Positions 157-20,522 of a DNA stretch of 20,713 nucleotides are shown piece after piece (position 1 is the first letter of the stretch; each line of letters starts with the position of its first letter). Where the stretch lies: positions 1-20,713 of the IMG/VR virus record IMGVR_UViG_2537562021_000003. The stretch is one strand, 5' to 3'. The notes below the pieces were generated by a model, which worked only from the letters and a program-made list of their open reading frames with translations, was not told where the DNA came from and made no database searches. The DNA comes from a virus. Taxonomy: Duplodnaviria > Heunggongvirae > Uroviricota > Caudoviricetes. Position numbers and translations under genes: made by a program.

Positions 157-1170
157 TTACGGTTGGCTGTTTTTAACATTCAAAAGAAAGTTCTTCCAAA
201 TTATTAGCAGTGAATTTTTATCTAAATCAATCTTATGAGGTTTGATGTTTTTTCCTTCATATATATTTTTATAATAGCAATCGATAGCAAAATGAATAGT
301 TAAATTATCTGGATGTATGGCTAGTAGACCTCGGTCAAGCAAGGCATGAAGGGTAGGTTCAAGAGGTATTCCATTGTTGGTTCTATGGTTTTGGGTCTGA
401 GAAAATGGTTCAAGGTGACATGCCTGCAATACTGGGAGGTTGTAACCTGTTATTGCGCATACATTTGAGAAGTTTTTTAGAACCCTTTTTTTAAAGTCAA
501 CCTGTTCGCCAGAGTCACGCTGTAATACTGTTTGCAGATGAGTATTGCCTTTTGTGACAACTGGTATACTAATTGTATCAGAGGGATTTATAAATATGAC
601 TGGCGGTAGAGTAGGTTCTAGAATGTTTTTTTGTCCAAGAAACTGCCTTGATAATAATTCATCTTTAGCGATTTTTATTGCTTCACTTTTTGTTAATGAA
701 AGGCATGCCAGATTATACGCATCTACATTGAAATATTTAGTTTCCCTGTTTAGCGTAATGGATGATATTTTTTTATCGTGTTCTGCTATTGGTATACCTT
801 TTGTGACAGGATGCGAAATGCTTTCAAGCAGTGTTGTATTGCCATTTATTTCTTTATTAAACAATGAGGTAGGGTGTTCAATCATATTGCTATGCTTGGC
901 GCGATAGTGCTCATATAGGCCATGAGCACTTTTGAAATTTTTCTTGCATATTATACAGCTAACATTTCCCCCATTAATTTTTTTTGAATTTCTTTTTCTG
1001 GATTCAACAAGAGAGTTTGTTAGATCTTCTCTTAGTTTTAATATTCTGAGGTTGGTTGGGTTGTTTCCTCGTCTATATGGTAAGCTCTCAAGTCTATTTA
1101 ACTCATTTTTGAGGTGTTGGTACTGTTTACGTGAAATTAAATTAGGTTTCATATTTAAGATTAAGATCAC
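157..1170 (-). CDS. Cargo protein with N-terminal C2H2-like zinc finger and C-terminal HNH-like nuclease motif (candidate exclusion/defence nuclease)
   Basis: 337-aa ORF, visibly AT-rich compared with the backbone. CIICKKNFKSAHGLYEHYRAKH has C-x2-C-x12-H-x4-H spacing. The C-terminus CAITG...LQACHLEPF...NNGIPLEPTLHALLDRGLLAI resembles the HNH_2-type motif as I recall it. Start is GTG at 1170 or ATG at 1152; no clear SD. Confidence 0.6.
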   Translation of the reverse strand: MILILNMKPNLISRKQYQHLKNELNRLESLPYRRGNNPTNLRILKLREDLTNSLVESRKRNSKKINGGNVSCIICKKNFKSAHGLYEHYRAKHSNMIEHPTSLFNKEINGNTTLLESISHPVTKGIPIAEHDKKISSITLNRETKYFNVDAYNLACLSLTKSEAIKIAKDELLSRQFLGQKNILEPTLPPVIFINPSDTISIPVVTKGNTHLQTVLQRDSGEQVDFKKRVLKNFSNVCAITGYNLPVLQACHLEPFSQTQNHRTNNGIPLEPTLHALLDRGLLAIHPDNLTIHFAIDCYYKNIYEGKNIKPHKIDLDKNSLLIIWKNFLLNVKNSQP

Positions 1171-1192
1171 TTTTGTGTACTTACATTATAAG

Positions 1193-2224
1193 TTACATGT
1201 TATTCGACAAGTATATAAAGTTCAAAGGGTTTTTCGTTACTGCATCTTCCAGATGGTCTGGAGAAAAATGGGCGTAAATCATCGTCATTTTTATATCGGC
1301 ATGGCCCAAAATATCGCGCAGTACCAGTATGTTTCCGCCGTTCATCATGAAATGGCTGGCGAATGTATGGCGTAGAACGTGGGGGCATTGTCCCTCTGGC
1401 AGTTCAATACCAGCTCGTTTTACTGCCCGTTCAAAGGCTTTTCTGCATGGGGTGAATAGCCTTCCTCTGTTTTTAGGGAGTTCGTTGTAAAGATCCTGAG
1501 ATATTGGCACGGTACGGTTTTTCTTGCCCTTCGTCTTGGTATAAGTGATGCGGTATTTGGATAACTGATGGCCCTGCAGATTTTCTGCTTCACTCCACCG
1601 TGCGCCAGTAGCTAGGCATATTTTTGCAATCATTAGTAAGCTAGGGCTTTGAGATTCAGCACATGCCGCCAACAGGCGCTTGATTTCGTCCGTGGAAAGA
1701 AAAGCCAGCTCACCTTCGGCAATTTTGAAGGTCGGAAGTCCTGCCAGCGGGTTTGGTGCTGACCAGTGTCCTAGTTTTTTTAATGTACCGAACACCGATG
1801 ATAGATTGCGCTGTTCAAGGTTTACCGTGCGGGGCTTAACGGGCGACATAAGCGTGCCATCTTCATTTCGTATTTCACCTTTTAACCGTGCTTCGCGGTA
1901 TTTCGTAAAGTCTCCGGCTGTCAGCTCAGAGGCGATGGGGTCGCCTAGACCATTACAGATAATTCTAAGTTTCGCCATGAGGCGCTTGGGGTCTGCGAGT
2001 GTCTGACCATACAGGGAATACCAAAGCTCAATTAATTCTGATAGGCGTCGCCGATCATCCTTTTCACCCAACCACGGTTTTTTATTCACTTCTTCCATTG
2101 TGAAGCTTTCAAACGCAATGGCTTCGCCTTTCGTGGCAAATTGCTTACGCACGCGCTTGCCATTGCGTCCATTGGGATAGCACTCACACAACCATTTTCC
2201 GTTCGGCTGTTTTCTGATGGTCAT
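1193..2224 (-). CDS. int: Tyrosine recombinase, P2/186-type phage integrase
   Basis: 343 aa; C-terminal HVLRHTFASHF...LGHADIKMTMIYAHF fits the H-x-x-R...Y catalytic motif. ATG at 2224 lies 1 nt after the cI stop. Confidence 0.9.
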   Translation of the reverse strand: MTIRKQPNGKWLCECYPNGRNGKRVRKQFATKGEAIAFESFTMEEVNKKPWLGEKDDRRRLSELIELWYSLYGQTLADPKRLMAKLRIICNGLGDPIASELTAGDFTKYREARLKGEIRNEDGTLMSPVKPRTVNLEQRNLSSVFGTLKKLGHWSAPNPLAGLPTFKIAEGELAFLSTDEIKRLLAACAESQSPSLLMIAKICLATGARWSEAENLQGHQLSKYRITYTKTKGKKNRTVPISQDLYNELPKNRGRLFTPCRKAFERAVKRAGIELPEGQCPHVLRHTFASHFMMNGGNILVLRDILGHADIKMTMIYAHFSPDHLEDAVTKNPLNFIYLSNNM

Positions 2225-2225
2225 A

Positions 2226-2858
2226 TCAAAGGCTCTTAATGATTTTCAGTGCGCGGCCTACTACCTCAATGTCATCCAGACCGCACTCAAACGATGAATC
2301 ATCCTGATGCACTACTAATTTGTTTCCCGGGAGTCGAGTCAATTTAACGATGCTTTTTATCCCGTCGATATCGACTAACCACATACCATTTACTGGTGGT
2401 GTTTGGTTGCGATCTATTAAATAAGAATCACCAGAAGTAGTCACCAGCAGTAGGTTGCTTGAGTCTGAGGGGAGTATGCTGCTATCAATGATTGCTTTTC
2501 CAGCATCGACCAATAAACCACCGTTGAGAGTCGCCTTGTCAATTTCAGGAGATACTAGTTCAGAAAGAGGTACAACCTTGCTGGAGTTCACGGAATTGAT
2601 ATTTTTTTTAGGTTCAATGTTTGGACCTGGCTCCCCCTGTCCGGTGGTTAGCCACAGTAAAGAAACTCCTGTTTCCAAGGCGCACTGAATCACCCACTCT
2701 GCAGGAAAACTATCTCTTAAGTATCTGTTTGCCATGGTGCTTTTTGATGCGCCTAAGTGATCGCAAAGTTGCTGTCTGGACTTGAAATCATAGGCTGCCA
2801 TTAGTCTATGGATAGCCTCTCTTCCCCCTGTATTCTCTCCAACCTTTACCTGTATCAT
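2226..2858 (-). CDS. cI: 186-type CI immunity repressor
   Basis: 210 aa; N-terminal AYDFKSRQQLCDHLGASKSTMANRYLRD...CALETGVSLLWLTTGQGE looks like the CI-repressor HTH. Divergent from the pR operon and directly upstream of int. Confidence 0.75.
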   Translation of the reverse strand: MIQVKVGENTGGREAIHRLMAAYDFKSRQQLCDHLGASKSTMANRYLRDSFPAEWVIQCALETGVSLLWLTTGQGEPGPNIEPKKNINSVNSSKVVPLSELVSPEIDKATLNGGLLVDAGKAIIDSSILPSDSSNLLLVTTSGDSYLIDRNQTPPVNGMWLVDIDGIKSIVKLTRLPGNKLVVHQDDSSFECGLDDIEVVGRALKIIKSL

Positions 2859-2870
2859 TTTTTAATCCTA

Positions 2871-2899
2871 TTGACGTATCAAATATTGGATCGTAGTAT
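2871..2899 (+). promoter_or_regulatory. pR-like sigma70 promoter for the early lytic operon
   Basis: TTGACG (2871..2876), 17-bp spacer, TAGTAT (2894..2899), about 80 bp upstream of the first + strand gene. Confidence 0.55.
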
Positions 2900-2922
2900 C
2901 TCGATGTATCAAATATTGAATC
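2876..2922. promoter_or_regulatory. Two 17-bp direct repeats in the cI/pR switch region (candidate operators)
   Basis: GTATCAAATATTGGATC at 2876..2892 and GTATCAAATATTGAATC at 2906..2922, each with a TCAA-n3-TTGA inverted core; the first lies in the pR spacer. Confidence 0.5.
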
Positions 2923-2977
2923 AAGTAAAACGAGATAAAACGACGTAAACCAAACCTTAATCGGGAGATACTGCACT

Positions 2978-3220
2978 ATGAGCACTGATATTTCAATTCG
3001 TGTACCAAAAGAGATGGCTACGCCTGCAGAGTTCGCGGAATGGGAAGGTATCTCCCGCGGCTCCGTGTATCAAAAAATTCACCATGGTCAGCTTGCTAAA
3101 TACATGGTCAAGAAAGAAAAAAACAAAGGCCGCGTAAGCCTGCGTTATTTAATGTACAAAACCGATCAGGTCCGTGAATCCCTCGGTCATTCCAACTTCC
3201 GCGTCATTGTTGGTAAGTAA
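2978..3220 (+). CDS. apl: Apl/Cox-like excisionase-regulator (first gene of the pR operon)
   Basis: 80-aa basic protein at the apl/cox position; SD GGGAGA at 2963..2968. Call is positional. Confidence 0.5.
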   Translation: MSTDISIRVPKEMATPAEFAEWEGISRGSVYQKIHHGQLAKYMVKKEKNKGRVSLRYLMYKTDQVRESLGHSNFRVIVGK

Positions 3221-3252: not shown

Positions 3253-3762
3253 ATGTTTGATTATAAGATTTCCAAACACCCGCATTTTGATGAAGCCTGT
3301 AGAGCTTTTGCACTTCGTCACAATATGGCGAAGCTGGCAGAACGTGCAGGAATGAATGTCCAGACTCTGCGAAACAAACTCAACCCAGATCAACCGCATC
3401 AGCTCAATGCGCCAGATATCTGGCTACTTACCGATCTGACGGAAGATTCAACGCTGGTAGACGGTTTTCTGGCACAGATTCACTGCCTGCCATGTGTACC
3501 GATTAATGAGGTGGCAAAAGAGAAACTGCCACATTACGTCATGAGTGCAACCGCAGAGATCGGGCGTGTTGCTGCAGGTGCGGTATCTGGCGATGTAAAA
3601 ACCAGTGCAGGTCGTCGTGATGCTATCAGCAGCATTAACTCTGTTACACGACTGATGGCGTTAGCTGCTGTTTCATTGCAGGCCCGTTTACAGGTTAATC
3701 CTGCGATGGCAAGTGCAGTTGATACTGTAACTGGCCTCGGTGCTTCATTCGGTTTGCTGTGA
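3253..3762 (+). CDS. cII: CII-like lysogeny establishment regulator
   Basis: 169 aa, second gene of the pR operon as in phage 186; SD-like GGGGG upstream of the ATG. Confidence 0.55.
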   Translation: MFDYKISKHPHFDEACRAFALRHNMAKLAERAGMNVQTLRNKLNPDQPHQLNAPDIWLLTDLTEDSTLVDGFLAQIHCLPCVPINEVAKEKLPHYVMSATAEIGRVAAGAVSGDVKTSAGRRDAISSINSVTRLMALAAVSLQARLQVNPAMASAVDTVTGLGASFGLL

Positions 3763-4803: not shown

Positions 4804-5657
4804 GCACCATCCTGAAATGGGCGGGAAATAAAACCGCCATTATGTCCGAACTGAAAAAACACCTTCCTGCTGGCCCGCGACTGGTTGAACCTTTCGCGGG
4901 TTCCTGTGCTGTGATGATGGAGACGGATTACCCCAGCTATCTGGTTGCGGATATTAATCCTGATTTAATCAACCTCTATAAAAAGGTTGCTGCTGATTGT
5001 GAATCGTTTATATCTCGCGCTAGAGTTTTATTTGAGATCGCAAACAGGGAGGTGGCTTATTACAACATAAGGCAGGAGTTTAATTACTCCACTGAAATTA
5101 CTGATTTCATGAAAGCGGTATATTTCCTGTATCTCAATCGTCACGGTTACCGTGGTTTATGTCGCTATAACAAGAGCGGGCATTTCAACATTCCCTACGG
5201 TAATTATAAAAATCCGTATTTCCCTGAAAAAGAAATTCGCGCATTTGCAGAAAAGGCCCAGCGAGCAACGTTTATCTGCGCCAGCTTTGATGAAACGCTG
5301 GCGATCTTGAAGGCGGGGGATGTGGTGTATTGCGATCCGCCGTATGACGGTACGTTTTCCGGCTATCACACTGATGGTTTCACTGAAGATGACCAGTATC
5401 ACCTGGCATCTGTTCTTGAACATCGGTCATCAGAAGGACATCCGGTCATTGTTTCTAACAGTGACACATCCCTGATCCGTTCGCTGTATCGCAATTTTAC
5501 TCACCACTACATCAAGGCAAAACGCAGCATCGGTGTGGCAGCTGGCGAGGGTAAATCAGCAACAGAAATCATTGCTGTTTCCGGGCCGCGCTGCTGGGTG
5601 GGATTTGATTATTCGCGTGGCGTGGATAGTTCTGCCGTGTACGGAGTACGTGCATGA
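4800..5657 (+). CDS. dam: DNA adenine methyltransferase (Dam-like, orphan)
   Basis: [17 protein letters not shown] and the DPPY motif in [11 protein letters not shown] at 4800 with SD GGAGGTG; ATGA overlaps with the neighbours on both sides. The track's longer ORF starts at 4740. Confidence 0.85.
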
Positions 5658-8068
5658 GCCATGCCGATATGAACAACTGCTGCGGCTTTAACGAGGCTGC
5701 CGCATCGTTCTCATGGAACAGCCCGAAAAAGGCCATTAACCCTTATCTGGACCCGGCGGAAGTTGCGCCGGTTTCTGCGCTTTCAAACCTGATCACTCTG
5801 TACGCTGCCGATAACGAGCAGGAACAGCTGCGCCGCGAGGCACTGAGTGATCAGGTCTGGGAGCGTTATTTCTTTAATGAATCCCGTGATCCTGTCCAGC
5901 GCGAAATGGAGCAGGATAAGCTCATTAGTCGGGCAAAGCTGGCGCATGAGCAGCAGCGTTTTAATCCAGATATGGTCATTCTGGCGGACGTCAATGCCCA
6001 GCCTTCCCATATCAGCAAGCCGCTGATGCAACGTATTGAATACTTCAGCAGCCTGGGCAGGCCAAAGGCTTATTCCCGCTATTTGCGTGAGACGATTAAG
6101 CCATGTCTGGAACGACTGGAGCATGTACGCGACAGTCAGCTATCCGCTTCTTTTCGCTTTATGGCAAGCCATGAAGGGCTGGATGGCCTGCTTATCCTGC
6201 CTGAAATGAGTCAGGATCAGGTGAAGCGCCTGTCTACCCTTGTCGCTGCGCATATGAGCATGTGCCTTGATGCAGCTTGTGGTGATTTGTATGCCACCGA
6301 TGACGTTAAGCCAGAAGAAATCCGCAAGACATGGGAAAAGGTGGCAGCGGAAACCCTGCGTCTGGATGTTATCCCGCCTGCGTTTGAGCAACTCCGTCGG
6401 AAAAGAAACCGCCGTAAACCCGTGCCCTATGAACTCATTCCGGGTTCGCTGGCGCGTATGTTGTGCGCTGACTGGTGGTACCGGAAATTATGGAAGATGC
6501 GTTGCGAATGGCGGGAAGAGCAGTTGCGCGCTGTCTGCCTGGTCAGCAAAAAAGCATCTCCTTATGTCAGCTATGAAGCCGTGATGCATAAACGTGAGCA
6601 GCGCCGTAAGTCGCTGGAGTTTTTCCGTTCTCATGAACTGGTGAACGAAGACGGCGACACGCTGGACATGGAGGATGTGGTAAACGCCAGCAGCAGCAAC
6701 CCTGCGCATCGCCGCAATGAGATGATGGCCTGTGTTAAAGGTCTGGAACTTATCGCGGAAATGCGCGGTGACTGCGCCGTTTTCTACACCATCACCTGTC
6801 CGTCACGTTTCCATTCCACGCTAAATAACGGCAGACCCAACCCGAACTGGACAAATGCGACGGTAAGACAAAGCAGTGATTATTTGGTCGGCATGTTTGC
6901 TGCATTTCGTAAGGCGATGCACAAAGCCGGATTGCGCTGGTATGGCGTGCGGGTGGCTGAGCCGCATCATGACGGTACAGTTCACTGGCACCTGTTGTGT
7001 TTTATGCGCAAAAAAGACCGCCGCGCCATCACTGCATTACTGCGTAAGTTTGCCATCCGTGAAGACCGCGAGGAGCTGGGCAATAACACGGGGCCGCGCT
7101 TTAAGTCTGAGTTGATTAACCCGCGCAAAGGAACGCCGACAAGCTACATCGCGAAATATATCAGTAAGAACATTGACGGGCGTGGTCTGGCTGGCGAGAT
7201 CAGCAAGGAAACGGGTAAATCCCTGCGTGATAACGCTGAATACGTGAATGCCTGGGCGTCTCTGCATCGTGTTCAGCAATTCCGCTTCTTTGGCATTCCG
7301 GGGCGTCAGGCTTACCGTGAACTGCGATTGCTGGCTGGTCAGGCGGCAAGGCAACAGGGTGACAAAAAAGCAGGTGCGCCGGTACTGGATAACCCGCGCC
7401 TTGATGCAATCCTGGCTGCTGCTGATGCTGGTTGTTTTGCCACCTACATCATGAAGCAGGGCGGCGTACTGGTTCCCCGTAAATATCACCTCATCAGAAC
7501 TGCTTATGAAATCAACGAAGAGCCGACCGCCTATGGCGATCACGGCATTCGTATTTATGGCATCTGGTCACCTATTGCAGAGGGCAAGATCTGCACTCAT
7601 GCCGTGAAGTGGAAAATGGTTCGTAAGGCCGTTGACGTTCAGGAGGCGGCAGCCGACCAGGGCGCTTGCGCCCCTTGGACTCGTGGCAATAACTGTCCCC
7701 TTGCTGAAAATTTGAACCAACAGGAGAAAGATAAATCAGCTGATGGGGACCCCAGAACGGACTTTACCCGCATGGATGACAAGGAGTTGCACGATTACCT
7801 GCACAGTATGAACAAAAAGGAGCGCCGGGAACTGGCTGCAAGGTTACGTCTGGTGAAACCGAAACGGCGTAGAGACTACAAACAGCGAATTACAGACCAT
7901 CAACGACAGCAGCTCGTCTATGAACTGAAATCCAGAGGATTTGATGGCAGCGAGAAAGAGGTCGATTTACTCCTTCGCGGCGGCAGTATTCCGTCAGGAG
8001 CAGGCCTGCGTATCTTCTATCGGAACCAGCGTTTGCAGGAAGATGATAAGTGGCGGAACCTGTATTAA
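5654..8068 (+). CDS. A: Replication initiation endonuclease, P2 gene A / 186 RepA family
   Basis: 804 aa; [22 protein letters not shown] and YIAKYISK match the HUH/tyrosine rolling-circle signatures of gpA. Confidence 0.85.
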
Positions 8069-8160
8069 TTACGCTGGTTAACAATTCGTGCTCTTAATAA
8101 TACCAGGCATATCAGGCTGATAAGCGTAAAAAAACGTTTTACATCAGTAAGATTATTATA

Positions 8161-8180
8161 TACTGTAAATATAAACAGTG
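8161..8180. promoter_or_regulatory. LexA (SOS) box
   Basis: TACTGTAAATATAAACAGTG: CTGT-n8-ACAG with an AT-rich spacer, 44 nt upstream of the ATG at 8222. Confidence 0.65.
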
Positions 8181-8221
8181 GTTATACATACAGTGTTGCG
8201 TGTGGTGTCATAGGAGGAAAG

Positions 8222-8410
8222 ATGCAGGACTATTTTTTGGAGTCTTTGAAGCTCCAGCGCATTGATTTTTTTCTTAAGCTTGTAGCGGCTAGTGAGTGTA
8301 GTGATGAAGAGAAGGGGCTGGCTCTGCAGTGGGTTTCTGAATTGACTGATGAACTCATGGCAAAAATCAGAAGCCACGAATACAACCGCTCAATGGATGT
8401 CATCAGCTGA
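8222..8410 (+). CDS. Small SOS-controlled protein, candidate antirepressor N-terminal part (Tum-like by position)
   Basis: 62 aa with strong SD AGGAGG at 8212..8217; its stop overlaps the SD of the DinI-like gene. Confidence 0.55.
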   Translation: MQDYFLESLKLQRIDFFLKLVAASECSDEEKGLALQWVSELTDELMAKIRSHEYNRSMDVIS

Positions 8411-8420
8411 GGTGACTTTT

Positions 8421-8654
8421 ATGCGCATTGAAATAATGATCGATAAAGAGCAGAAGATTAGCCAGTCTACCTTGGACGCCCTTGAATCCGAGCTTTACCG
8501 CAATCTGCGCCCCCTGTATCCCAAAACGGTAATCCGTATCCGTAAAGGTAGCTCTAACGGTGTGGAACTGACCGGACTGCAACTGGACGAAGAAAGAAAA
8601 CAAGTGATGAAAATTATGCAGAAGGTGTGGGAAGACGACAGCTGGCTGCATTGA
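8421..8654 (+). CDS. DinI-family protein
   Basis: 77 aa; MRIEIMIDKEQ...IRKGSSNGVELTGL...VMKIMQKVWEDDSW parallels E. coli DinI as I recall it. SD GAGGTG at 8409..8414. Confidence 0.75.
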   Translation: MRIEIMIDKEQKISQSTLDALESELYRNLRPLYPKTVIRIRKGSSNGVELTGLQLDEERKQVMKIMQKVWEDDSWLH

Positions 8655-8707
8655 TTTTGTCAATAGACGCTTGTTTTTACTAATCAAAAAGGGTTACATA
8701 TGAGTGA

Positions 8708-8741
8708 GAGGCGATGTCAATCAGATATCGCCTTGTTTTTT
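8708..8741 (+). terminator. Candidate intrinsic terminator after the DinI-like gene
   Basis: Stem AGGCGAT (8709..8715) / ATCGCCT (8727..8733) then TTGTTTTTT; the loop is long (11 nt), so weak. Confidence 0.4.
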
Positions 8742-8767
8742 GTCAAGAAAAGAATAATAGGCTAAAA

Positions 8768-9445
8768 ATGAAAATTAATAATGTAGCGTTACCAATATCT
8801 CTTGCTGTAATCCTAACTGGTTGCGTGCCACATGCTTCTAACCGAAATATCACTGCTATTGAAGTGGTGAAGCCTGCTATTGGGCAAAGTGCTACCGCCT
8901 ACATGGGCGATCCCATTATCACATCTGCTACTGGATTTAAAACGGACGTACTAGAACTTGGTGCGGCTAATGGTGCATTGTCTTCTATCGCTGCTGGTAC
9001 ATATTGCAGTGAGGGGAATGGAATTTACCGCAATTATCATAACCCTCAAGCTGTTGCGTTAAAAAATCTCTATGGGCAAATCGGTAACTATGTTGATTAT
9101 GTTAGTTACGATGCTGCAAAAAATGAGATATCACCGCCAAATGGTACTTCTTATACTGCATCAGAAATTTCTATCAAACGTGTTCCTGATGGGCTGTGTC
9201 GAGTTAGTAACTCATTGGTTAAGACTATCGAATACAATGGAAATGCAGGCGGTGTAATGAAGTTCACCTATCGTGAATTTGCAAACGATATGGCTCGTGC
9301 AGCATTTACAACAGATTTTTCTGTAGATTCTAAGGGAAGTGACGTTATCGCTTACAAAGGTGCCAAGTTCAAAGTGAACAAGGCTGATAACTCGTCTATT
9401 TCTTATACAATTATTTCTGGCTTTGACAAGGCTGTCACGTTCTAG
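8768..9445 (+). CDS. Lipoprotein of unknown function (cargo)
   Basis: MKINNVALPISLAVILTGC is a signal peptide with lipobox LTGC; AT-rich codon usage. The track's upstream start at 8714 lies inside the terminator hairpin. Confidence 0.65.
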   Translation: MKINNVALPISLAVILTGCVPHASNRNITAIEVVKPAIGQSATAYMGDPIITSATGFKTDVLELGAANGALSSIAAGTYCSEGNGIYRNYHNPQAVALKNLYGQIGNYVDYVSYDAAKNEISPPNGTSYTASEISIKRVPDGLCRVSNSLVKTIEYNGNAGGVMKFTYREFANDMARAAFTTDFSVDSKGSDVIAYKGAKFKVNKADNSSISYTIISGFDKAVTF

Positions 9446-9548
9446 GTTTCACGCTTACTGAGTATGTTACGATTTTGCACATTCTGCATAAACGCGCATG
9501 TCTATGCTGCATGAGATCGCATGATCGTTTGAGGATCTTTTGTGTTAA

Positions 9549-9574
9549 GGCCCGCCAGTTCTGGCGGGCTTTTG
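9549..9574 (+). terminator. Intrinsic terminator downstream of the lipoprotein gene
   Basis: GCCCGCCAG / CTGGCGGGC 9-bp inverted repeat followed by TTTT. Confidence 0.6.
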
Positions 9575-9618
9575 CGTAGATCATGCAGGTGCATGAAAAC
9601 CACTACATAAAGCGGGCA

Positions 9619-9637
9619 GGCGTGGCGGGGATACGAG
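9619..9637. other. cos-like packaging site (P2/186-type cohesive-end sequence)
   Basis: GGCGTGGCGGGGATACGAG: the first 13 nt match the 186 cohesive end as I recall it (GGCGTGGCGGGGAAAGCAT). GC-rich patch between accessory genes and the portal gene. Confidence 0.45.
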
Positions 9638-9864
9638 CGCGCGCCGCGGGTTGAAATAGTAAAATTCACTTAGCCTCAGGCCCGCTGATGGTTTTCTTCT
9701 GAAAGGGAGGGCGCGTTTTTGTGCAATCTTGTTTGAAGGGATTTAAATAAATGTTGAATGTGTTCCGGAGTTGGCTGTAGATTTAGTGTTCTGCCACAAG
9801 TTGCAGTGATAGGTAGCAAACCTTTAAAAGGTTCTGCTATTGTTTCATTAAAGATTTATAGTCT

Positions 9865-10464
9865 TTGTCCGAAAATGACATTAAAGTAGTCGCCTTTAAT
9901 GTCGTAAGCATGAAGGACAGAGAATTGAACTTAGAGCAGATTGCCAGTCAAAGTATAAGTAACCTTCAGTTTCTCCTCGATACTTTGAAGATGCCGTTGG
10001 CTGTTGGTCCAATCAGTGATGAAGACTATGTGATCCTGACCACAGGATACGCTCAGCTAGAATGGGATTATGGTTTTTCTCGGTTTGGCAATCGAAGTGA
10101 TAAGTTTGAATTTTGTTTGAAGCTCCTTGCGGGGCCACTTAGGCATATCCCTTCTGGCGCAGCTATGTGCACCTTTGACGAGGACGCTGGAGTCATAGAG
10201 ATCCATTTTGTGGAATCTTTTGTGAAAGATGATGACGTAGAGCACCCTCTTTACGGCAACATGTTCATGGTTACATTGTGGGCGGTATATCTTTTTGGTA
10301 GCGCGGTTGGGTGTCAAGAGATTCGGATCCCTGAAGCCCTGAATCAAAAAGTTGCTGACCACTATAAAAAATTTGGTTTTAAAGGTGATATAAGCTTGCT
10401 TTCGGCACCTTTTGCTACAATAACTGATGTAGTAAGACGCTACATTACTTCTAAGAAACAGTAG
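9865..10464 (+). CDS. Hypothetical cargo protein; C-terminus possibly GNAT-like
   Basis: 199-aa ORF from TTG 9865 (or 184 aa from ATG 9910); no strong SD for either. IRIPEALNQKVADHYKKFGF resembles GNAT motif B; no clear motif A. Confidence 0.5.
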   Translation: MSENDIKVVAFNVVSMKDRELNLEQIASQSISNLQFLLDTLKMPLAVGPISDEDYVILTTGYAQLEWDYGFSRFGNRSDKFEFCLKLLAGPLRHIPSGAAMCTFDEDAGVIEIHFVESFVKDDDVEHPLYGNMFMVTLWAVYLFGSAVGCQEIRIPEALNQKVADHYKKFGFKGDISLLSAPFATITDVVRRYITSKKQ

Positions 10465-10474
10465 ATAAATTTTT

Positions 10475-10496
10475 GCGCAGTGCTACAATGCTGCGC
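10475..10496 (+). promoter_or_regulatory. Extended -10 promoter (TGCTACAAT) inside a 6-bp-arm inverted repeat
   Basis: GCGCAG (10475..10480), TGCTACAATG, CTGCGC (10491..10496), about 50 nt upstream of the 59-aa ORF. Confidence 0.45.
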
Positions 10497-10543
10497 CAAA
10501 CATCCACCACCGGATGATGAGGCTTGACCTCTAAGAGGAAATC

Positions 10544-10723
10544 ATGACTATGACGCATAGTGACAAGAAAGCTCAGAAGCATTACTCAGTATCTGATGTT
10601 TTCAGCCGTATGGGCGTCGCGATGGAAGAACTACTTCAAGCGGCCCCACATATGATGCAGGACTGCAAATTTGAAGGAAATGAGCTGCATGGTAAGCTCA
10701 AAGAAAAGCAGAAAGCTGCTTAA
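10544..10723 (+). CDS. Small hypothetical protein (59 aa), not in the ORF track
   Basis: My own translation: MTMTHSDKKAQKHYSVSDVFSRMGVAMEELLQAAPHMMQDCKFEGNELHGKLKEKQKAA. SD AAGAGGA at 10533..10539; terminator follows. Confidence 0.5.
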   Translation: MTMTHSDKKAQKHYSVSDVFSRMGVAMEELLQAAPHMMQDCKFEGNELHGKLKEKQKAA

Positions 10724-10747
10724 TTCCATGAAATGCGTTTTGCATGA

Positions 10748-10771
10748 AGCCCGGTAATACCGGGCTTTTTT
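10748..10771 (+). terminator. Intrinsic terminator between the convergent 59-aa ORF and Q
   Basis: AGCCCGG TAATA CCGGGCT followed by TTTTTT. Confidence 0.7.
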
Positions 10772-10778
10772 ATGCTTG

Positions 10779-11816
10779 CTAGTCAGTATTAAGCTCATAT
10801 GGATTGAATCGGACTACCTCTTCACCAAGCCATTCATTTAGCTCCAGCAATCGCTTTTGTAACGGTACTATTTCGTTTCTTGTGAAGACGCGACTGGCCT
10901 TTTCCACATCCCCAAAACCGCCGGTATTGTTGGGAATGATACCCATCATTTGCGGCGGCACACGATGCGCCGCCATCATGTCGTCCCGGCTCACGTTCTT
11001 GATATTCAGGAACTCATCCTTCGCCGCCACTTCTGACAACGGGATAATCTGAAGCCCATCCTTTTTGCCGTTAGGCGAGTACATAAACAGGTTACGGAAG
11101 TTACCAGGACCTTTGGCACTTTTCATTGCGTTGCGGAGGTTGTTCACATCCTCCTGGTTCTGCGCGGCGTCGGTCATGTACATGATGAAGCCCGCATGGC
11201 TGCCGTTAATGTAATACTTCCGGCGGAACAGCGTGGCGGACTCGTTGAGCAGGGCTGACGGAATGGCAGAAAGATAACCGGGCAGGCCGTAGATCTCCTG
11301 GTTGATGTCCGGCTCCATCAGATGAAAAATGCTGCCTTTCGTGAACTGATACGGCTGGGTTGTCATACCGTATTGCACAAACCAGTAGGTATCCAGGTCT
11401 AACCCGCGTCGGGTGTATTTTGCCAGAGCAGGCTCAAGGGCTATAACTTCACCGAAGCGGTTCGTGCGTTTCTCCAGGTAGGCGTTACCAAAAACCAGAA
11501 AGTCCTGTACAAAACGCGAAAAAGCCTGCTGGCTGAGCAGCGGGTGAGGGATGTAGGTGCTGGTCAGAATGTTGCACTTCACTGCAATCGGTGAGCTATG
11601 ATGTATGGCGGCGCGGAAGGTTCGCGCCAGTCCGTCGAAACTCACAGGCAGCTCATACCAACGATCCATCTGTACGCATTCCACATAGTCCAGCAGTTCG
11701 CGGCGGTCCAGAACAGGAACGGGATCACCGAAGCTGAATGCTTCGGCTGAAGTCTGGCTTTTATGCTGGATCTGTTTCGTCGACGCAGCGCGGTTCTTCT
11801 TACTCTTTCCCATCAA
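10779..11816 (-). CDS. Q: Portal protein, P2 gpQ family
   Basis: 345 aa (P2 Q is about the same size), directly followed on the same strand by the terminase ORF. Confidence 0.8.
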   Translation of the reverse strand: MMGKSKKNRAASTKQIQHKSQTSAEAFSFGDPVPVLDRRELLDYVECVQMDRWYELPVSFDGLARTFRAAIHHSSPIAVKCNILTSTYIPHPLLSQQAFSRFVQDFLVFGNAYLEKRTNRFGEVIALEPALAKYTRRGLDLDTYWFVQYGMTTQPYQFTKGSIFHLMEPDINQEIYGLPGYLSAIPSALLNESATLFRRKYYINGSHAGFIMYMTDAAQNQEDVNNLRNAMKSAKGPGNFRNLFMYSPNGKKDGLQIIPLSEVAAKDEFLNIKNVSRDDMMAAHRVPPQMMGIIPNNTGGFGDVEKASRVFTRNEIVPLQKRLLELNEWLGEEVVRFNPYELNTD

Positions 11817-13000
11817 AAAATCTCCACAATATTGCTGGTATTGGCGGACTCGCCCTGCAGCGGTTCGTTAAACAGTGCGTGCATTGTTGCCCAGGCCAGA
11901 TCGGCATGGCTGGCTTCTTCGCTGCGGCTGGCTTCATAGGTCGGGCGGTTGCCACTGGCAGTGGTAGCGCGACGGATTGCCATAAATGACTGCGCAATGT
12001 CGGTGTGCCCGGCGTCAAACTCCAGGCGGCGGTGGCTGATAATGTCGTAGGCCTTGAGTACCAGGGCGTTTTTAACGTTGGGGTTGTAGACAAACTCCCG
12101 GACGGCAGGAAAAAACGCTTTCACGTTCTCGTAAACCCCGTGACCGACGCCGGTCGAGTCGATGCCGATATAGGTCACGTTATACTGTTCGGTCAGTTTT
12201 TTGATGGCGTCAGCCTGGGCGCGAAAGTCCATTCCGCGCCACTGGTGACGCTCAAGAATGCGGAACTTGCCGCCCGGCACGGCTGGCGGAGCCACCACCA
12301 CGCATCCGGCGCTGTCACCGTTTTGCGTACCTTTTGCCGGGTCATAACCGATCCACACTTCGCGCCAGCCAAACGGGCGCAGCGCCAGTGCATGAAAGTC
12401 GGTCCAGACTTCCCAGCTGTCCACCATGCACGCCTGCAGCTCGCTGAGCGGGAACACGGACGCGAGATCGTCCACGAACTCACACATCAGCAGGTTCTGG
12501 TATTCGTCCGGGCTGTACTCCATGCGCAACTGGTCAAGGTCGAACAGGTTACAGCCGCCGCGCACCGCATCTTCCACAGTGACTATCTGGCGGTACTGCC
12601 CGTCTGCGCACAGCAGGCCGGGGGCCAGATTGCTGTGGGACAGGTCGATGTCCACCTTATCGGCTTTGTTGCGCCCTCGGTTGAACAGCGCACCGGACCA
12701 GAACGGATAAGCACTGTGTGTCAGGCTGGATGGCGTGGAAAAATAGGTTTGTCGCCATTTTTTGTGAATAGCCATACCGGAAGCCACTTTGCGCAGCTCC
12801 TGGAATTTCGGTATCCAGAAATATTCATCCAGATACAGGTTGCCGTGGTAACTCTGGGCCGTGCGGGCATTGGTGCCGAGGAAGTACAGCGTGGCCCCGT
12901 TAGGAAGCACCATCGGATCGCCTTTCAGCTCCACCTCCACTTCTTTGGCGAAGTCGATGATGTACTGCTTAAAGACGTGGGCCTGAGCCTTGCTGGCGGA
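11813..13000 (-). pseudogene. P: Terminase large subunit (gpP) remnant lacking its N-terminal part
   Basis: About 395 codons of protein-like reading frame with a Walker-B-like LYLDEYFWI but no Walker A; a full gpP (about 590 aa) would have to start near 13585, which is occupied by FII/E coding sequence. Confidence 0.7.
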
Positions 13001-13256
13001 AAGGAAAATCTGGTTACGCCCGGTTACCGGAGAAGTGCAGGCCGTGGAGCTTGTGGTGCGTGGACGTCACAAAGAAGTGGATTCCGGCGAGTGGAAGACG
13101 GGCGAAAGCAACACCACCAAAGTGACCAGTACCAACAGCTACGCGAAGCTGACCATCAATGGTGAGGTGCTCTATGAAGTGGACCTTATCAACATGGTGG
13201 AAATTGTGGACGGTGTGGACCTGATGGAAGCGCACCGCAACGCCCTCGGCCTCTGA
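12987..13256 (+). pseudogene. Tail tube (gpFII) C-terminal fragment
   Basis: ...TGEVQAVELVVRGRHKEVDSGEWKTGE...INGEVLYEVDLINMVEIVDGVDLMEAHRNALGL resembles the FII C-terminus; in-frame stop at 12984..12986 and no N-terminal half. Confidence 0.55.
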
Positions 13257-13310
13257 TATATCTGAACGGCGCGGGATACCGCGCCAGAACCCAATTTACA
13301 GGACAGCAAA

Positions 13311-13613
13311 ATGAACGATAAGCAGACTGAAAAGACCATTCAACTGGATACCCCCATCAAGCGCGGTAAAACAGAAATCACCGAAATTGTGCTGCGTAAA
13401 CCGCAGTCCGGTGCGCTGCGCGGTACACGCCTGCAGGCCATTATGGATATGGATGTAAACGCGATGATGACCGTGATCCCCCGCATCTCCAGTCCGGCAC
13501 TGACTGCACAGGAAATTGCAGAGATGGACTCGGCAGATCTCACTGCCATGTCGGTTGAGGTTGTCACTTTTTTGTTGAAGAAGTCGGTGCTTGCAGGTTT
13601 ACCGACAGCCTGA
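13311..13613 (+). CDS. E: Tail assembly chaperone gpE
   Basis: 100 aa directly upstream of the tape measure gene; heptamer T_TTT_TTG at 13568..13574 near its 3' end. Confidence 0.8.
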   Translation: MNDKQTEKTIQLDTPIKRGKTEITEIVLRKPQSGALRGTRLQAIMDMDVNAMMTVIPRISSPALTAQEIAEMDSADLTAMSVEVVTFLLKKSVLAGLPTA

Positions 13614-13747
13614 CGGTTGATGATCTGGTGGCAGATATCGCCACCATTTTTCACTGGCCGCCATCCGTTACTGACGTTATGCCGCTGACCGAAGTGCTGG
13701 AATGGCGGTATAAAGCGATTCAGAGAAGCGGGGCCAACGATGAGTGA
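13311..13747 (+). CDS. gpE+E' product of a -1 programmed frameshift
   Basis: After the slip at 13568..13574 the -1 frame stays open to TGA at 13745..13747 (...MPLTEVLEWRYKAIQRSGANDE), overlapping the T start. Confidence 0.6.
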
Positions 13748-16700
13748 TAATAACCTGCGCCTTCAGGTCATTCTTAATGCGGTTGACAAACTCACCCGCC
13801 CATTCCGTGCTGCACAGGCCAGTTCGAAAGAGCTGGCTGGCGCAATTCAGAATACCCGAAACAGCCTCAAAGAACTGAATAAGCAGGCTGGCAGAATTGA
13901 TGAATTTCGCAAGACGCGCTCGCAACTAGCCATAACAGCCAACAACCTGAACGCAGCCCGCGAAGAGGCGGCAAAACTCGCCACACAATTTGCTGCCACT
14001 AACAGGCCAACCGCCGCGCAGGCAAAGTTATTCAGTCAGGCCAAAACACGAGTGCAGGAACTTCAGCAGACCTATAACGGCTTGTTGGGGGCGGTCCAGA
14101 GACAACGTCAGGCACTTAAAGAATCAGGGATTGATACCAGACAACTCAGTAGTGCCCAGCGAGAACTTAAGAAAAATGCTGAAGAAACAAGGCAGGCACT
14201 GGAGGGCCAGCAAAAAGCACTTAAACGTCTGGGTGAACAACAGGCACGGATGAACGCTGCCAGAGAACAATACTCAAGACGGCTTGAAGTGCGCGATCGC
14301 ATCGCAGGAGCCGGAGCCACTACCACGGCTGCAGGGCTGGCAATGGGTGCGCCAGTGATGGCGGCAGTAAAAAGCTATACCAGCATGGAAGATGCCATGA
14401 AAGGTGTGGCAAAGCAGGTCAATGGTCTGCGTGACGATAATGGCAACCGCACTGCACGTTTTTATGAAATGCAGGATGCCATCAAGGCTGCCAGCGAACA
14501 GTTGCCGATGGAAAACGGTGCGGTGGACTTCGCTGCACTGGTTGAAGGTGGTGCGCGCATGAACGTCGCAAACCCTGACGACAGCTGGGAAGACCAGAAA
14601 CGTGACCTGCTGGCCTTCGCCAGTACGGCAGCAAAGGCGGCAACAGCCTTTGAGCTGCCAGCGGATGAACTGTCAGAAAGTCTGGGGAAAATCGCCCAGC
14701 TCTACAAAATACCTACCCGCAATATTGAACAGCTCGGCGATGCGCTGAACTATCTGGATGATAACGCCATGTCGAAAGGGGCGGACATCATTGATGTGAT
14801 GCAACGTCTGGGCGGTGTGGCTGACCGTCTGGATTATCGTAAAGCGGCGGCACTGGGTTCCACCTTTCTGACACTGGGCGCTGCGCCGGAGGTTGCAGCC
14901 AGTGCAGCAAACGCGATGGTGCGTGAATTGTCCATTGCCACCATGCAAAGCAAGAGTTTCTTTGAAGGGATGAATCTGCTGAAACTCAATCCTGAAGTGA
15001 TTGAAAAGCAGATGACGAAGGATGCGATGGGAACTATCCAGCGTGTGCTGGAGAAGGTGAACGCACTGCCGCAGGACAAGCGTCTGTCTGCCATGACCAT
15101 GTTGTTTGGTAAAGAGTTTGGTGATGACGCGGCGAAACTGGCAAACAACCTGCCGGAACTGCAGCGCCAGCTAAAACTGACAGCGGGCAATGATGCGCTC
15201 GGTTCCATGCAGAAAGAATCCGACATCAACAAAGACTCACTTTCTGCTCAGTGGTTGCTGGTCAAAACCGGAGCGCAGAACACCTTCAGCAGCCTGGGCG
15301 AAACGCTGCGCCAGCCGCTGATGGATATTCTGTACACGGTGAAAAGCATCATGGGGGCGTTGCGCCGCTGGGTGGAAGCTAACCCGGAACTGACAGGCAC
15401 ACTGATGAAAGTAGCGGCTGTTGTGGCTGCGGTTACCGTAGGCCTCGGCACCTTAGCGGTGACGCTGGCTGCAGTGCTGGGGCCGCTGGCAGTCATCCGT
15501 CTGGGATTCTCTGTGCTGGGTATCAAAACGTTACCTTCCGTTACGGCAGCAGTAACACGAACCAGCAGCGCGTTGTCCTGGTTAGCTGGCGCTCCACTGG
15601 CACTGCTGCGACGCGGGCTTGCTTCATCGGGCAACGCAGCGGGTTTACTTACTGCGCCGTTGTCGTCTTTGCGCCGTACGGCATCACTGACGGGAAATGT
15701 CCTGAAAACTGTAGCAGGTGCGCCGGTTGCACTTTTGCGGTCTGGATTATCCGGTTTACGTGCTGTTGCTGTGATGTTTATGAATCCTCTGGCGGTACTG
15801 CGCGGTGGACTGGTCGCCGCAGGCACGGTGCTGCGAGTACTGGCATCTGGTCCACTGGCGATGCTGCGCGTTGCCCTGTATGCCGTATCTGGTCTGTTAG
15901 GTACTCTGCTCAGTCCGATAGGTCTTGTGGTTACTGCACTGGCAGGCGTGGCGCTGGTTGTCTGGAAATACTGGCAACCCATCACCGCATTTCTCGCTGG
16001 TGTGGTGGAAGGATTCAAAGCGGCGGCAGGTCCCATCAGTGCAGCATTCGAACCACTTAAGCCTGTGTTTCAGTGGATTGGCGACAAAGTGCAGGCGTTG
16101 TGGGGCTGGTTTACTGATCTGCTGACGCCCGTTAAGTCGACCTCTGCCGAACTGCAGAGCGCAGCGGCAATGGGGCGACGATTTGGGGAGGCACTGGCGG
16201 AAGGGCTGAATATGGTCATGCATCCGCTGGACTCCCTGAAATCCGGCGTTTCCTGGTTGCTGGAGAAACTCGGCATTGTCAGTAAAGAGGCTGCAAAGGC
16301 GAAACTGCCGGAAAGCGTGACGCGTCAGCAACCTGCGACGGTGAATGCAGACGGTAAAGTGATGATGCCATCGGGTGGTTTTCCGTCATGGGGATATGGC
16401 TTTGCGGGGATGTATGACAGCGGCGGCTATATCCCGCGCGGGCAGTTCGGCATTGTCGGTGAAAACGGGCCGGAAATTGTCAACGGTCCGGCAAACGTGA
16501 CCAGCCGGAGAAATACCGCTGCACTGGCTGCGGTTGTCGCCGGAATGATGGGAGTTGCTGCCGCGCCAGCAGAGCTTCCACCGTTGCATCCTTTGGCGCT
16601 TCCCGCGAAAGGCGGTGAAGCGATGGTGAGTCGCGTAGCTGCTGTGCCGCCCGTTCACCGGATTGAGGCACCGACGCAGATCATCATCCAGACGCAGCCA

Positions 16701-16817
16701 GGACAAAGTGCGCAGGATATTGCGCGGGAGGTGGCACGCCAGCTTGATGAACGTGAACGCAGGCTGAAGGCAAAAGCCAGGAGTAACTACAGCGATCAGG
16801 GGGGATACGACGCATGA
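13740..16817 (+). CDS. T: Tail tape measure protein gpT
   Basis: 1025 aa, helical N-terminus, Ala/Gly/Leu-rich middle, at the T position after E/E'. Confidence 0.85.
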   Translation: MSDNNLRLQVILNAVDKLTRPFRAAQASSKELAGAIQNTRNSLKELNKQAGRIDEFRKTRSQLAITANNLNAAREEAAKLATQFAATNRPTAAQAKLFSQAKTRVQELQQTYNGLLGAVQRQRQALKESGIDTRQLSSAQRELKKNAEETRQALEGQQKALKRLGEQQARMNAAREQYSRRLEVRDRIAGAGATTTAAGLAMGAPVMAAVKSYTSMEDAMKGVAKQVNGLRDDNGNRTARFYEMQDAIKAASEQLPMENGAVDFAALVEGGARMNVANPDDSWEDQKRDLLAFASTAAKAATAFELPADELSESLGKIAQLYKIPTRNIEQLGDALNYLDDNAMSKGADIIDVMQRLGGVADRLDYRKAAALGSTFLTLGAAPEVAASAANAMVRELSIATMQSKSFFEGMNLLKLNPEVIEKQMTKDAMGTIQRVLEKVNALPQDKRLSAMTMLFGKEFGDDAAKLANNLPELQRQLKLTAGNDALGSMQKESDINKDSLSAQWLLVKTGAQNTFSSLGETLRQPLMDILYTVKSIMGALRRWVEANPELTGTLMKVAAVVAAVTVGLGTLAVTLAAVLGPLAVIRLGFSVLGIKTLPSVTAAVTRTSSALSWLAGAPLALLRRGLASSGNAAGLLTAPLSSLRRTASLTGNVLKTVAGAPVALLRSGLSGLRAVAVMFMNPLAVLRGGLVAAGTVLRVLASGPLAMLRVALYAVSGLLGTLLSPIGLVVTALAGVALVVWKYWQPITAFLAGVVEGFKAAAGPISAAFEPLKPVFQWIGDKVQALWGWFTDLLTPVKSTSAELQSAAAMGRRFGEALAEGLNMVMHPLDSLKSGVSWLLEKLGIVSKEAAKAKLPESVTRQQPATVNADGKVMMPSGGFPSWGYGFAGMYDSGGYIPRGQFGIVGENGPEIVNGPANVTSRRNTAALAAVVAGMMGVAAAPAELPPLHPLALPAKGGEAMVSRVAAVPPVHRIEAPTQIIIQTQPGQSAQDIAREVARQLDERERRLKAKARSNYSDQGGYDA

Positions 16818-17299
16818 TGATGGTGCTGGGATTGTACGTGTTTATGCTGCGCACCGTTCCGTATCAGGAACTGCAGTATCAACGCAGCTGGCGACATGCG
16901 GCAAACAGCCGGGTAAACCGTCGTCCGTCCACGCAGTTTCTGGGACCGGACAACGACATGCTGACGCTTTCCGGTGTTCTTATGCCGGAGATAACGGGCG
17001 GCAGGCTGTCGTTGCTGGCTCTGGAGCAGATGGCAGAACAGGGAAAAGCATGGCCCCTGATTGAAGGCAGCGGCACGATTTACGGCATGTATGTGATTGA
17101 GGGACTGAATCAGACTAAAACGGAGTTCTTCCGCGACGGTATGCCGCGCAGGATTGAGTTCACCCTGTCGCTAAAACGCGTGGATGAATCCCTGCCCGAT
17201 ATGTTCGGTGATCTCAGTGCGCAACTGAATAATCTGCAGGGAACGGCAACATCTGCCTTAAGCGATATCAGTAAAACGGTGGGAGGGCTGCTGTCGTGA
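16814..17299 (+). CDS. U: Tail protein gpU
   Basis: 161 aa, start overlaps the T stop; P2 order T-U-D. Confidence 0.75.
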   Translation: MMMVLGLYVFMLRTVPYQELQYQRSWRHAANSRVNRRPSTQFLGPDNDMLTLSGVLMPEITGGRLSLLALEQMAEQGKAWPLIEGSGTIYGMYVIEGLNQTKTEFFRDGMPRRIEFTLSLKRVDESLPDMFGDLSAQLNNLQGTATSALSDISKTVGGLLS

Positions 17300-18396
17300 A
17301 TTTCAGCTCTGAACTGCTTAACAAAGGCAACAAAACTCCGGCATTCAGCATCAGTATTGAAGGCAGGGATATCACCACTGTGCTGGACAACCGCCTGATG
17401 GGGCTGACGCTGACGGATAACCGGGGCTTTGAAGCGGACCAGCTTGATCTGGAGCTGGACGACGCCGATGGAAAAATCGTGCTGCCGCGCCGTGGTGCGG
17501 TCATTACGCTGGCGCTGGGCTGGAAGGGGCAGCCGCTTTTCCCGAAAGGGGCATTCACGGTGGACGAGATTGAACACACTGGCGCACCGGACCGCCTGAC
17601 TATCCGGGCGCGAAGTGCTGATTTTCGTGAAACGCTGAATACCCGTCGTGAAAAGTCGTGGCACAAGACCACCGTTGGGGAAGTGGTGAAGGAAATAGCT
17701 GCGCGGCACAAACTGAAGATGGCATTGGGTAAAGACCTGTCAGATAAACCCGTGGAACATATAGACCAGACCAATGAGAGTGACGGCAGTTTTCTGATGC
17801 GGCTGGCGCGACAGTACGGTGCCATCGCGTCGGTGAAAAATGGCAATCTGTTATTCATCCGGCAGGGACAGGGCAAAAGCGCCAGCGGTAAACCTCTGCC
17901 GGTGATCACTATCACACGCAAGGACGGCGACAGTCACCGCTTTACCCTGGCAGATCGCGGAGCCTATACGGGCGTAATTGCCAGTTGGTTGCATACCCGC
18001 GAACCCGCGAAGAAAGAAAGCACCACGGTGAAGCGTAAGCGCAGGACCGCAAAGCAGAAGAAAGAGCCGGAAGCGAAGCAGGGCGATTACCTGGTGGGTA
18101 CGGATGAAAACGTGCTGGTACTTAATCGCACTTATGCCAACCGGAGCAACGCTGAACGGGCAGCGAAAATGCAGTGGGAACGCCTGCAACGCGGCGTTGC
18201 GTCATTCTCGCTACAACTGGCGGAAGGTCGGGCAGATCTCTACACGGAAATGCCAGTGAAAGTCAGTGGCTTTAAACAGCCGATAGATGATGCGGAATGG
18301 ACCATTACGACTCTGACACATACCGTCAGCCCGGATAACGGTTTTACAACCAGTATTGAACTCGAAGTGAATATTGATGATCTTGAAATGGAATAA
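17296..18396 (+). CDS. D: Tail protein gpD
   Basis: 366 aa, start overlaps the U stop; followed by ogr as in P2. Confidence 0.75.
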   Translation: MNFSSELLNKGNKTPAFSISIEGRDITTVLDNRLMGLTLTDNRGFEADQLDLELDDADGKIVLPRRGAVITLALGWKGQPLFPKGAFTVDEIEHTGAPDRLTIRARSADFRETLNTRREKSWHKTTVGEVVKEIAARHKLKMALGKDLSDKPVEHIDQTNESDGSFLMRLARQYGAIASVKNGNLLFIRQGQGKSASGKPLPVITITRKDGDSHRFTLADRGAYTGVIASWLHTREPAKKESTTVKRKRRTAKQKKEPEAKQGDYLVGTDENVLVLNRTYANRSNAERAAKMQWERLQRGVASFSLQLAEGRADLYTEMPVKVSGFKQPIDDAEWTITTLTHTVSPDNGFTTSIELEVNIDDLEME

Positions 18397-18464
18397 AGTG
18401 TTCTCAATATTGATATTTTGTGTATCATTACAATGATTCTGATAGCAAAGGTAGGGATCTGGAT

Positions 18465-18683: not shown

Positions 18684-18690
18684 GAAAGAG

Positions 18691-18714
18691 AACCTGCTAC
18701 GGCAGGGTTTTATT
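18691..18714. terminator. Hairpin between convergent ogr and the WYL/BRCT-like gene
   Basis: CCTGC TACG GCAGG followed by TTTTATT on the + strand. Confidence 0.45.
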
Positions 18715-19192: not shown

Positions 19193-19315
19193 GTGAAACC
19201 TCTTTGCATGATTTCAAGATGGCGACAGGCAAGATGGACGAAAAAGTCTGTCGCCATTTTGCCGCCACTACCAAAGAAAAAGGGGCTACGCTTTCACGTA
19301 ACCCCTTGATTTATT

Positions 19316-20500: not shown

Positions 20501-20522
20501 TTTTGTGTACTTACATTATAAG

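Follow-up and report, generated by a model that had tools for sequence, protein, structure and literature searches.

The window, that is, the whole stretch of 20,713 nucleotides of viral DNA analysed here, carries an accessory region between its gpA gene (5654–8068) and its portal gene (10779–11816, − strand), arranged in the order DinI, lipoprotein, putative cos site and cargo. The right-end accessory genes occupy 8222–9445 on the + strand and comprise a 62-aa ORF (8222–8410; PHROG 698), a DinI/Tum-like gene (~8421–8654; Pfam DinI, 1.2 × 10−22; PHROG 189), and a gene for an Orf97-like lipoprotein (from 8714 or 8768 to 9445; PHROG 1353), a homologue of Orf97 of phage 186. Read from its Met19 start, the Orf97-like protein has a signal peptide followed by the lipobox ILTGC, which bears out its earlier designation as a lipoprotein, made from the letters of the window alone (hereafter the sequence-only reading). 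That reading had also proposed that a cos site splits the accessory region into two parts. The division holds, with the 62-aa ORF, the DinI-like gene, and the lipoprotein gene on the right-end side and 199-aa and 59-aa ORFs on the left-end side. The left-end cargo (9865–10723, + strand) belongs to PHROG 4350 and PHROG 2741, both families of unknown function, and is present at ≥99.8% identity in 11 E. coli genomes. The 199-aa ORF (9865–10464) opens with TTG, whereas in RefSeq this frame starts at the ATG of 9910, giving 184 aa; the shorter product is the more likely one because the PHROG 4350 match starts at residue 21. The 62-aa, lipoprotein, 199-aa, and 59-aa proteins yielded no Pfam or PADLOC match, and their PHROGs are exclusively function-unknown families. 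A defence-system identity of the cargo was therefore rejected, there being no PADLOC or Pfam match to support it.

The portal gene, a gpQ homologue, is intact (Pfam Phage_portal) and shares 94% amino-acid identity with the Cartapus portal over its full length. The overall layout, with accessory genes on the gpA side, then cos, then a leftward portal–terminase operon, matches that of P2, 186, Fels-2, and Cartapus. Window positions 8068–10779 represent the gpA–gpQ locus, described as a cos-proximal hotspot with 1,650 gene arrangements in E. coli (Rousset et al. 2022, PMC9122126). WP_001154431, WP_000700647, and WP_021523861 (the 59-aa protein) appear in the table of hotspot arrangements of that study (PMC9122126). 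The locus is the same as theirs; no cargo gene of the window matches a known defence family, and, as far as the text of PMC9122126 shows, the cargo of the window is not among the systems tested there. From the end of the 19-mer described below (9637) to the portal stop (10779), we measured 1141 bp, in agreement with the distance of about 1.1 kb estimated earlier. Across 87 IMG/VR contigs the cos-to-portal distance ranges from 144 to 3537 bp (median 1650), so that this gap is normal for the clade. Relatives likewise carry cargo between cos and the portal gene: a DUF4145 gene in Cartapus and a 565-aa ORF in Fels-2.

Within this region, the 13-mer GGCGTGGCGGGGA occurs exactly once, at 9619–9631 (+), and is followed by ATACGAG and then by CGCGCGCCGCGGG at 9638–9650. 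It begins the 19-mer GGCGTGGCGGGGATACGAG at 9619–9637 (+). By itself the 13-mer is poor evidence for a cos site, as three matches with up to two mismatches are found in the window against 0.45 expected; it is the extended alignment that makes the argument. The 19-mer lies in the GC-rich island that the sequence-only reading had pointed out, with a GC content of 0.77 at 9610–9652 and 0.56 over 9494–9644, compared with 0.41–0.43 in the cargo on either side. GGCGTGGCGGGGATACGAG is identical to the cos of a mitomycin-inducible P2-like prophage of E. coli HS, for which 5′-GGCGTGGCGGGGATACGAG-3′ was given as cos on the basis of read-start analysis and PhageTerm (PMC8008629, Supplementary Table S4), and to the cos annotated in SEN8, an isolated Salmonella phage (PMC5427200). 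The deposited sequence of the E. coli HS prophage (...CATGAAAACCACTACATAAAGCGGGCAGGCGTGGCGGGGATACGAGCGCGCGC...; PMC8008629) matches the window exactly from at least 50 nt left of the nick up to +26. Ungapped identity of the overhang is 15/19 to 186 and PSP3 and 14/19 to P2 and P4, and the annotated cosL of P2, 186, and PSP3 falls in register with 9619–9637. Positions 9619–9637 (+) are thus homologous to the mapped 19-nt 5′-protruding ends (GGCG[A/T]GGCGGGGA...) and are designated cosN. With positions transferred on the basis of homology to the E. coli HS phage, P2, and 186, the top strand would be nicked 5′ of 9619 and the bottom strand after 9637.

The likeness extends well beyond the overhang. 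We joined the ends of the P2, 186, PSP3, and P4 records, which have annotated cohesive ends, and made a MAFFT alignment of the joined sequences together with the window, Fels-2, and Cartapus. The sequences aligned in register over ~150 bp. The bases directly after the overhang, (C/T)GCGCGC, are invariant in all seven; to its left lies the common block GCA..TGCAT.AAAACC....C...AAG.GGGC., and three TGCAT/GCATG motifs further left are also shared. In the same alignment, Cartapus is identical to the window through a 26-nt core, GGCGTGGCGGGGATACGAGCGCGCGC. A profile Hidden Markov Model built only from the cos regions of P2, 186, P4, and PSP3 gave a single significant nhmmer match in the 20.7-kb window, at 9492–9654 (67.5 bits, E = 1.2 × 10−20), and the second match (E = 2) remained under the inclusion threshold. 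From −36 to +26, without gaps, the window is identical to Fels-2 at 62/62 positions and to P2, 186, P4, and PSP3 at 47–50 of 62. A cos core of ~55 bp common to P2 and P4 has been described (Ziermann & Calendar 1990, as cited in later papers), and both this core and its upstream flank are conserved here, as the profile match and the 47–50/62 identities indicate. Over 9450–9644 (195 bp), the window shares 99% identity with Fels-2 and with dozens of P2-like phages of Klebsiella and Salmonella. The proposal of a P2/186-type cos had been made subject to alignment with P2-family cos regions beyond 13 nt; the profile match provides that alignment, and the identity of the 19-mer with a mapped cos end agrees with it.

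To delimit the conserved unit, we gathered 120 IMG/VR loci by the 26-nt core and computed ungapped identity to the window over the 109 distinct contigs carrying it. Identity was 0.80–0.95 from −125 to −1, peaked at 0.95–1.0 over the 19-mer and the adjoining 45 bp, and fell to ~0.25, the chance level, directly left of −125 and right of +26. On the left-end side, only 7 bp past the overhang (CGCGCGC) are conserved, and in the 109 sequences the core is followed on its right by 91 different 30-mers. These limits define a conserved unit of 9494–9644 (+; −125 to +26, ~151 bp), with variable cargo on both sides, and this unit is presumed to be the region that terminase recognises and cleaves. The window carries the clade consensus base wherever conservation reaches ≥0.9, and it differs only at positions polymorphic within the clade; the cos site has thus not decayed. 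In more than 100 related phages, homology stops sharply at 9493/9494 and 9644/9645, that is, at −125 and +26 from the nick, and the breakpoints of cargo exchange accordingly coincide with the exact edges of the cos block. Rousset et al. speculate that cos ends seed recombination, and breaks at −125 and +26 fit that suggestion (PMC9122126). More speculatively, these breaks might mark cos as a recombination boundary driving cargo exchange, and the GCATG array might be a small-terminase binding site.

Known phages fall at graded distances from this site. E. coli HS phage 1 (Microbiome 2021, PMC8008629), Fels-2, SEN8, Cartapus, and phages of the Klebsiella 4LV2017 type have an identical 19-mer and CGCGCGC and near-identical upstream sequence back to −125, and their cos likewise lies between genes of the DinI/lipoprotein type and cargo plus the portal gene. 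They differ from the window right of +26 and left of −125 because their cargo differs. Unlike them, the window is without complete cognate terminase genes, which are missing or truncated; this affects the function of the site in the element, not its identity. The cos of 186 and PSP3, GGCGTGGCGGGGAAAGCAT, is identical over the first 13 nt and agrees without gaps at 15 of 19 overhang positions, differing at positions 14, 16, 17, and 19. It shares the (T/C)GCGCGCC flank, the left flank AAAACC...AAAG(C/T)GGGCA, the palindrome TCATGCA-NN-TGCAT, and the distal TGCAT repeats. At the right end, the genes tum (DinI) and orf97 are also the same, in the order tum–orf97–cos seen in 186, whereas the 186/PSP3 portal gene starts ~180–200 bp from cos compared with 1141 bp in the window. 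P2 and its satellite P4 share 14/19 overhang positions, 47/62 positions over −36 to +26, and the same overall layout; P2 has an accessory-gene hotspot beside cos, as in the window, but not the hairpin that the window has at about −70 to −45. Since the identical 19-mer has been published as cos for the HS phage and SEN8, this cos variant is already known; with its mapped ends and the surrounding cargo hotspot also published, the site is an ordinary one.

Window positions 1–1383 recur exactly at 19331–20713, giving a period of 19,330 bp, and the window differs at four positions from the chromosome of E. coli WS4437A-1, a human stool isolate (NZ_CP035822.1). One of the four mismatches is at 1384, directly after the duplicated part. 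In WS4437A-1 the prophage adjoins ssrA, being integrated at its 3′ end. In the window, the prophage ends are joined via a 49-nt overlap (19315–19363), of which ~45 nt are the ssrA 3′ end; the window therefore represents the attP (circular) form of the 19.3-kb prophage remnant of WS4437A-1. No plasmid record of the circular form was found in PLSDB. By blastn, window positions 10816–13024 correspond to Cartapus 906–3114 and 13025–19473 to Cartapus 17128–23576, leaving one clean break in collinearity (13024|13025 = 3114|17128), a deletion of 14,013 bp. It starts within the large terminase gene, ends within the tail tube gene FII, and takes out every head, lysis, baseplate, fibre, and sheath gene. 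The large terminase remnant (11813–13024, − strand) retains residues 185–588 only, stopping at the junction, and tblastn showed that residues 93–171 of FII are kept as well; RefSeq lists both remnants as pseudogenes. Searching the window with tblastn produced no match for scaffold O, capsid N, small terminase M, L, or sheath FI. The small terminase gene is thus deleted, as the sequence-only reading had held, and the large one is truncated too: the window encodes no gpM homologue, and its gpP is without residues 1–184. The integrase, CI, Cox-like, CII, and gpA genes are intact, and the portal, E, T, U, and D genes are still present. The deletion of gpM, the N-terminal 184 residues of gpP, the capsid and lysis genes, and most tail genes leaves the element unable to cleave or package itself, and the site is not usable in cis. 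Of 5,426 complete E. coli genomes, one contains the deletion junction, and the junction 40-mer was absent from IMG/VR contigs and metagenome contigs. The simplest reading is a recent, private deletion, with cos surviving as nothing has yet mutated it.

Taken together, we conclude, with a probability of about 0.92, that 9494–9644 is the cos site of a P2-family prophage, of the Fels-2/E. coli HS-phage/Elveevirus variant, left intact in a gutted element. In a complete phage of this type, by analogy with the family, packaging at this site would begin with a terminase (small gpM plus large gpP) recognising the ~150-bp block on a covalently closed monomeric circle. The two nicks, 19 nt apart at the positions given above, would yield a linear genome with 5′-protruding GGCGTGGCGGGGATACGAG ends that is then packaged, the portal side becoming the left end and the gpA/DinI side the right end. 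Nearly all recognition information would lie on the right-end side, from −125 to −1, in the form of five GCATG motifs, a palindrome, and a hairpin. The site sits in the middle of the gpA–gpQ hotspot, with variable cargo abutting it on both sides.

With its own terminase lost, the element might instead be a satellite-like defective phage that leaves the chromosome, multiplies in circular form, and relies on a superinfecting or co-resident helper of the Fels-2/Elveevirus type for packaging in trans. That a helper phage could use the site had been suggested in the sequence-only reading. Use of the site in trans is mechanistically plausible by analogy: the terminase of the P2 family acts preferentially on closed monomeric circles, cutting at cos to leave 19-nt ends (PMC2231350); P2 transduces plasmids bearing P2 or P4 cos, with flanking sequence raising the efficiency more than 1000-fold (PMC9594776); and a P2 lysogen without cos packages the cosmid only (PMC9942202). 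P4 capsids take up cosmids down to ~43% of capacity, packaged as monomers (PMC2231350), and the 19.3-kb circle amounts to ~58% of a 33-kb genome. The undecayed cos block, the intact int, CI, Cox-like, CII, and gpA (gpA/ori), the appearance of the element as an attP circle, and the existence of other cos-bearing remnants with late-gene deletions are all consistent with mobilisation. However, the circle in the window may be an artefact of record construction, and helper-dependent spread left no sign among 5,426 E. coli genomes (one with the junction), IMG/VR, or metagenome contigs (none in either), where a satellite would be expected as the same element in unrelated hosts. No close helper resides in WS4437A-1, in which a single place matches the terminase/tube probe. 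The helper-exploitation genes of a satellite (sid, psu, delta/epsilon, alpha primase) and a streamlined genome are not seen either: P4 sid, psu, and alpha, and with them genes for capsid-size or helper control, are absent from the window, which contains only an Ogr/Delta-type zinc finger of the kind present in every P2-like phage, and the element has kept the portal, E, T, U, and D genes, which are of no use to it, as after a recent accident. Among the 120 IMG/VR core loci, 110 have a P2-like portal, gpA, or DinI gene nearby and none belongs to a P4-like satellite (no sid, psu, or alpha), which is weak negative evidence as IMG/VR may under-represent satellites. We therefore consider a helper-mobilised element unlikely and favour the intact leftover of a recent deletion.

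The internal features of the block bear on a second alternative, in which it is kept mainly as a transcriptional boundary, terminating an SOS-operon-like DinI/lipoprotein transcript and insulating the cargo, with its likeness to cos being incidental. The hairpin GGCCCGCCAG-TTC-TGGCGGGC, followed by TTTT (9547–9573, +), is GC-rich and lies inside the cos block; its predicted RNA fold has −22.3 kcal/mol (z = −4.46), a stability reached by 0 of 200 shuffles. Within the clade the stem and T-run are conserved and the loop is variable. A palindrome without a T-run is present at the corresponding position in 186, PSP3, and P4 and absent in P2, so a hairpin is not generally required. The hairpin is most simply taken as the intrinsic terminator of the rightward DinI/lipoprotein transcript, and it could be conserved simply as such. 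This strong, conserved terminator speaks for a boundary role. Yet conservation is highest over the 19-mer and the adjoining 45 bp rather than at the hairpin, and the block is in register with the mapped ends of P2, 186, PSP3, P4, and the E. coli HS phage, even though P4 has essentially nothing else in common with P2. A boundary function as the main reason for keeping the block is thus very improbable. The sequence-only reading had placed terminators on both flanks of the site. The upstream one is real, at 9547–9573, just outside the interval it had marked; the downstream one did not stand, as the + strand at 9640–9740 folds no better than shuffled sequence (z = 0.24). A hairpin at 9711–9724 listed by the scan tool is weak. 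An RNA element was rejected, the Rfam search being empty over the whole window.

The GCATG/CATGC motif occurs five times inside the block (9496, 9509, 9519, 9582, and 9591) compared with 43 times in the whole 19.3-kb unit. The three distal repeats (9496, 9509, and 9519) span 9496–9523, and the proximal pair is contained in the perfect palindrome TCATGCA-GG-TGCATGA at 9581–9596, 23 bp upstream of the nick. Conservation of the TGCAT columns is seen in P2, 186, P4, PSP3, Cartapus, and Fels-2, and that of the palindrome columns across the P2 family. On the strength of this conservation, we regard the GCATG motifs, including the distal three, as candidate repeats that the small terminase subunit would recognise. 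The last alternative, a chance GC-rich motif, can draw on the shortness of the 13-mer and its surplus of near matches and is refuted by the 163-bp profile alignment (E = 1.2 × 10−20) and the 99% identity to Fels-2 over 195 bp.

Identification of the site as cos fixes the mature genome ends for this prophage type and shows the gpA–gpQ hotspot to be divided by cos into right-end and left-end cargo compartments. The limits of the block (~151 bp, −125 to +26) could guide the design of cosmids for phages of the Fels-2/Elveevirus type. Beyond correct annotation, the finding matters little. It would matter more if the 19.3-kb derivative and similar late-gene-deleted remnants that keep int, rep, cos, and cargo were mobilised as circles by Fels-2/Elveevirus-type helpers, which we think unlikely; defective P2-like prophages would then make up a so far unnoticed group of hitch-hikers that depend on cos and carry hotspot cargo to new hosts.

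Other prophages have likewise lost late genes and kept the early region and the hotspot, so that this pattern recurs. In a P2-like prophage of GCA_021912895.1 (JAETGW010000015.1), a truncated D gene abuts a truncated TerL gene. In E. coli 504239 (NZ_CP025859.1, 4582383–4601369), capsid N is fused to D, the portal gene is interrupted by IS66, and the cargo consists of the same 199-aa and 59-aa ORFs as in the window. These two prophages lie at or beside rcdA–ybjL and have independent late-gene deletions, having kept int, cI, the replication genes, cos, and the hotspot. A different arrangement is found in the metagenomic viral contig IMGVR_UViG_3300011853_000021, which has two complete cos blocks in inverted orientation at 3440–3465 (−) and 6704–6729 (+), 3.3 kb apart, with ~80% identity over 206 bp; the contig may have been assembled as a chimera or may contain two P2-like elements side by side.

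Two further observations concern the surroundings of the site. Between the 59-aa ORF and the portal stop, the hairpin GAAGCCCGGTAATACCGGGCTT (10746–10768) has a T-run on the + strand only and would therefore end the cargo transcript well, looking poor for the leftward portal–terminase operon; in this it is unlike tQ of P2 and tW of 186. In addition, two other accessory genes flank attP: a 337-aa HNH-endonuclease protein (157–1170, − strand; Pfam HNH_2, weak PADLOC HNH matches) and a 160-aa protein (18710–19192, − strand; weak BRCT-like match, PADLOC PDC-S48 match). Cartapus carries a different gene (RES/NAD+-binding) at the position of 157–1170, which suggests a second cargo hotspot beside the integrase.
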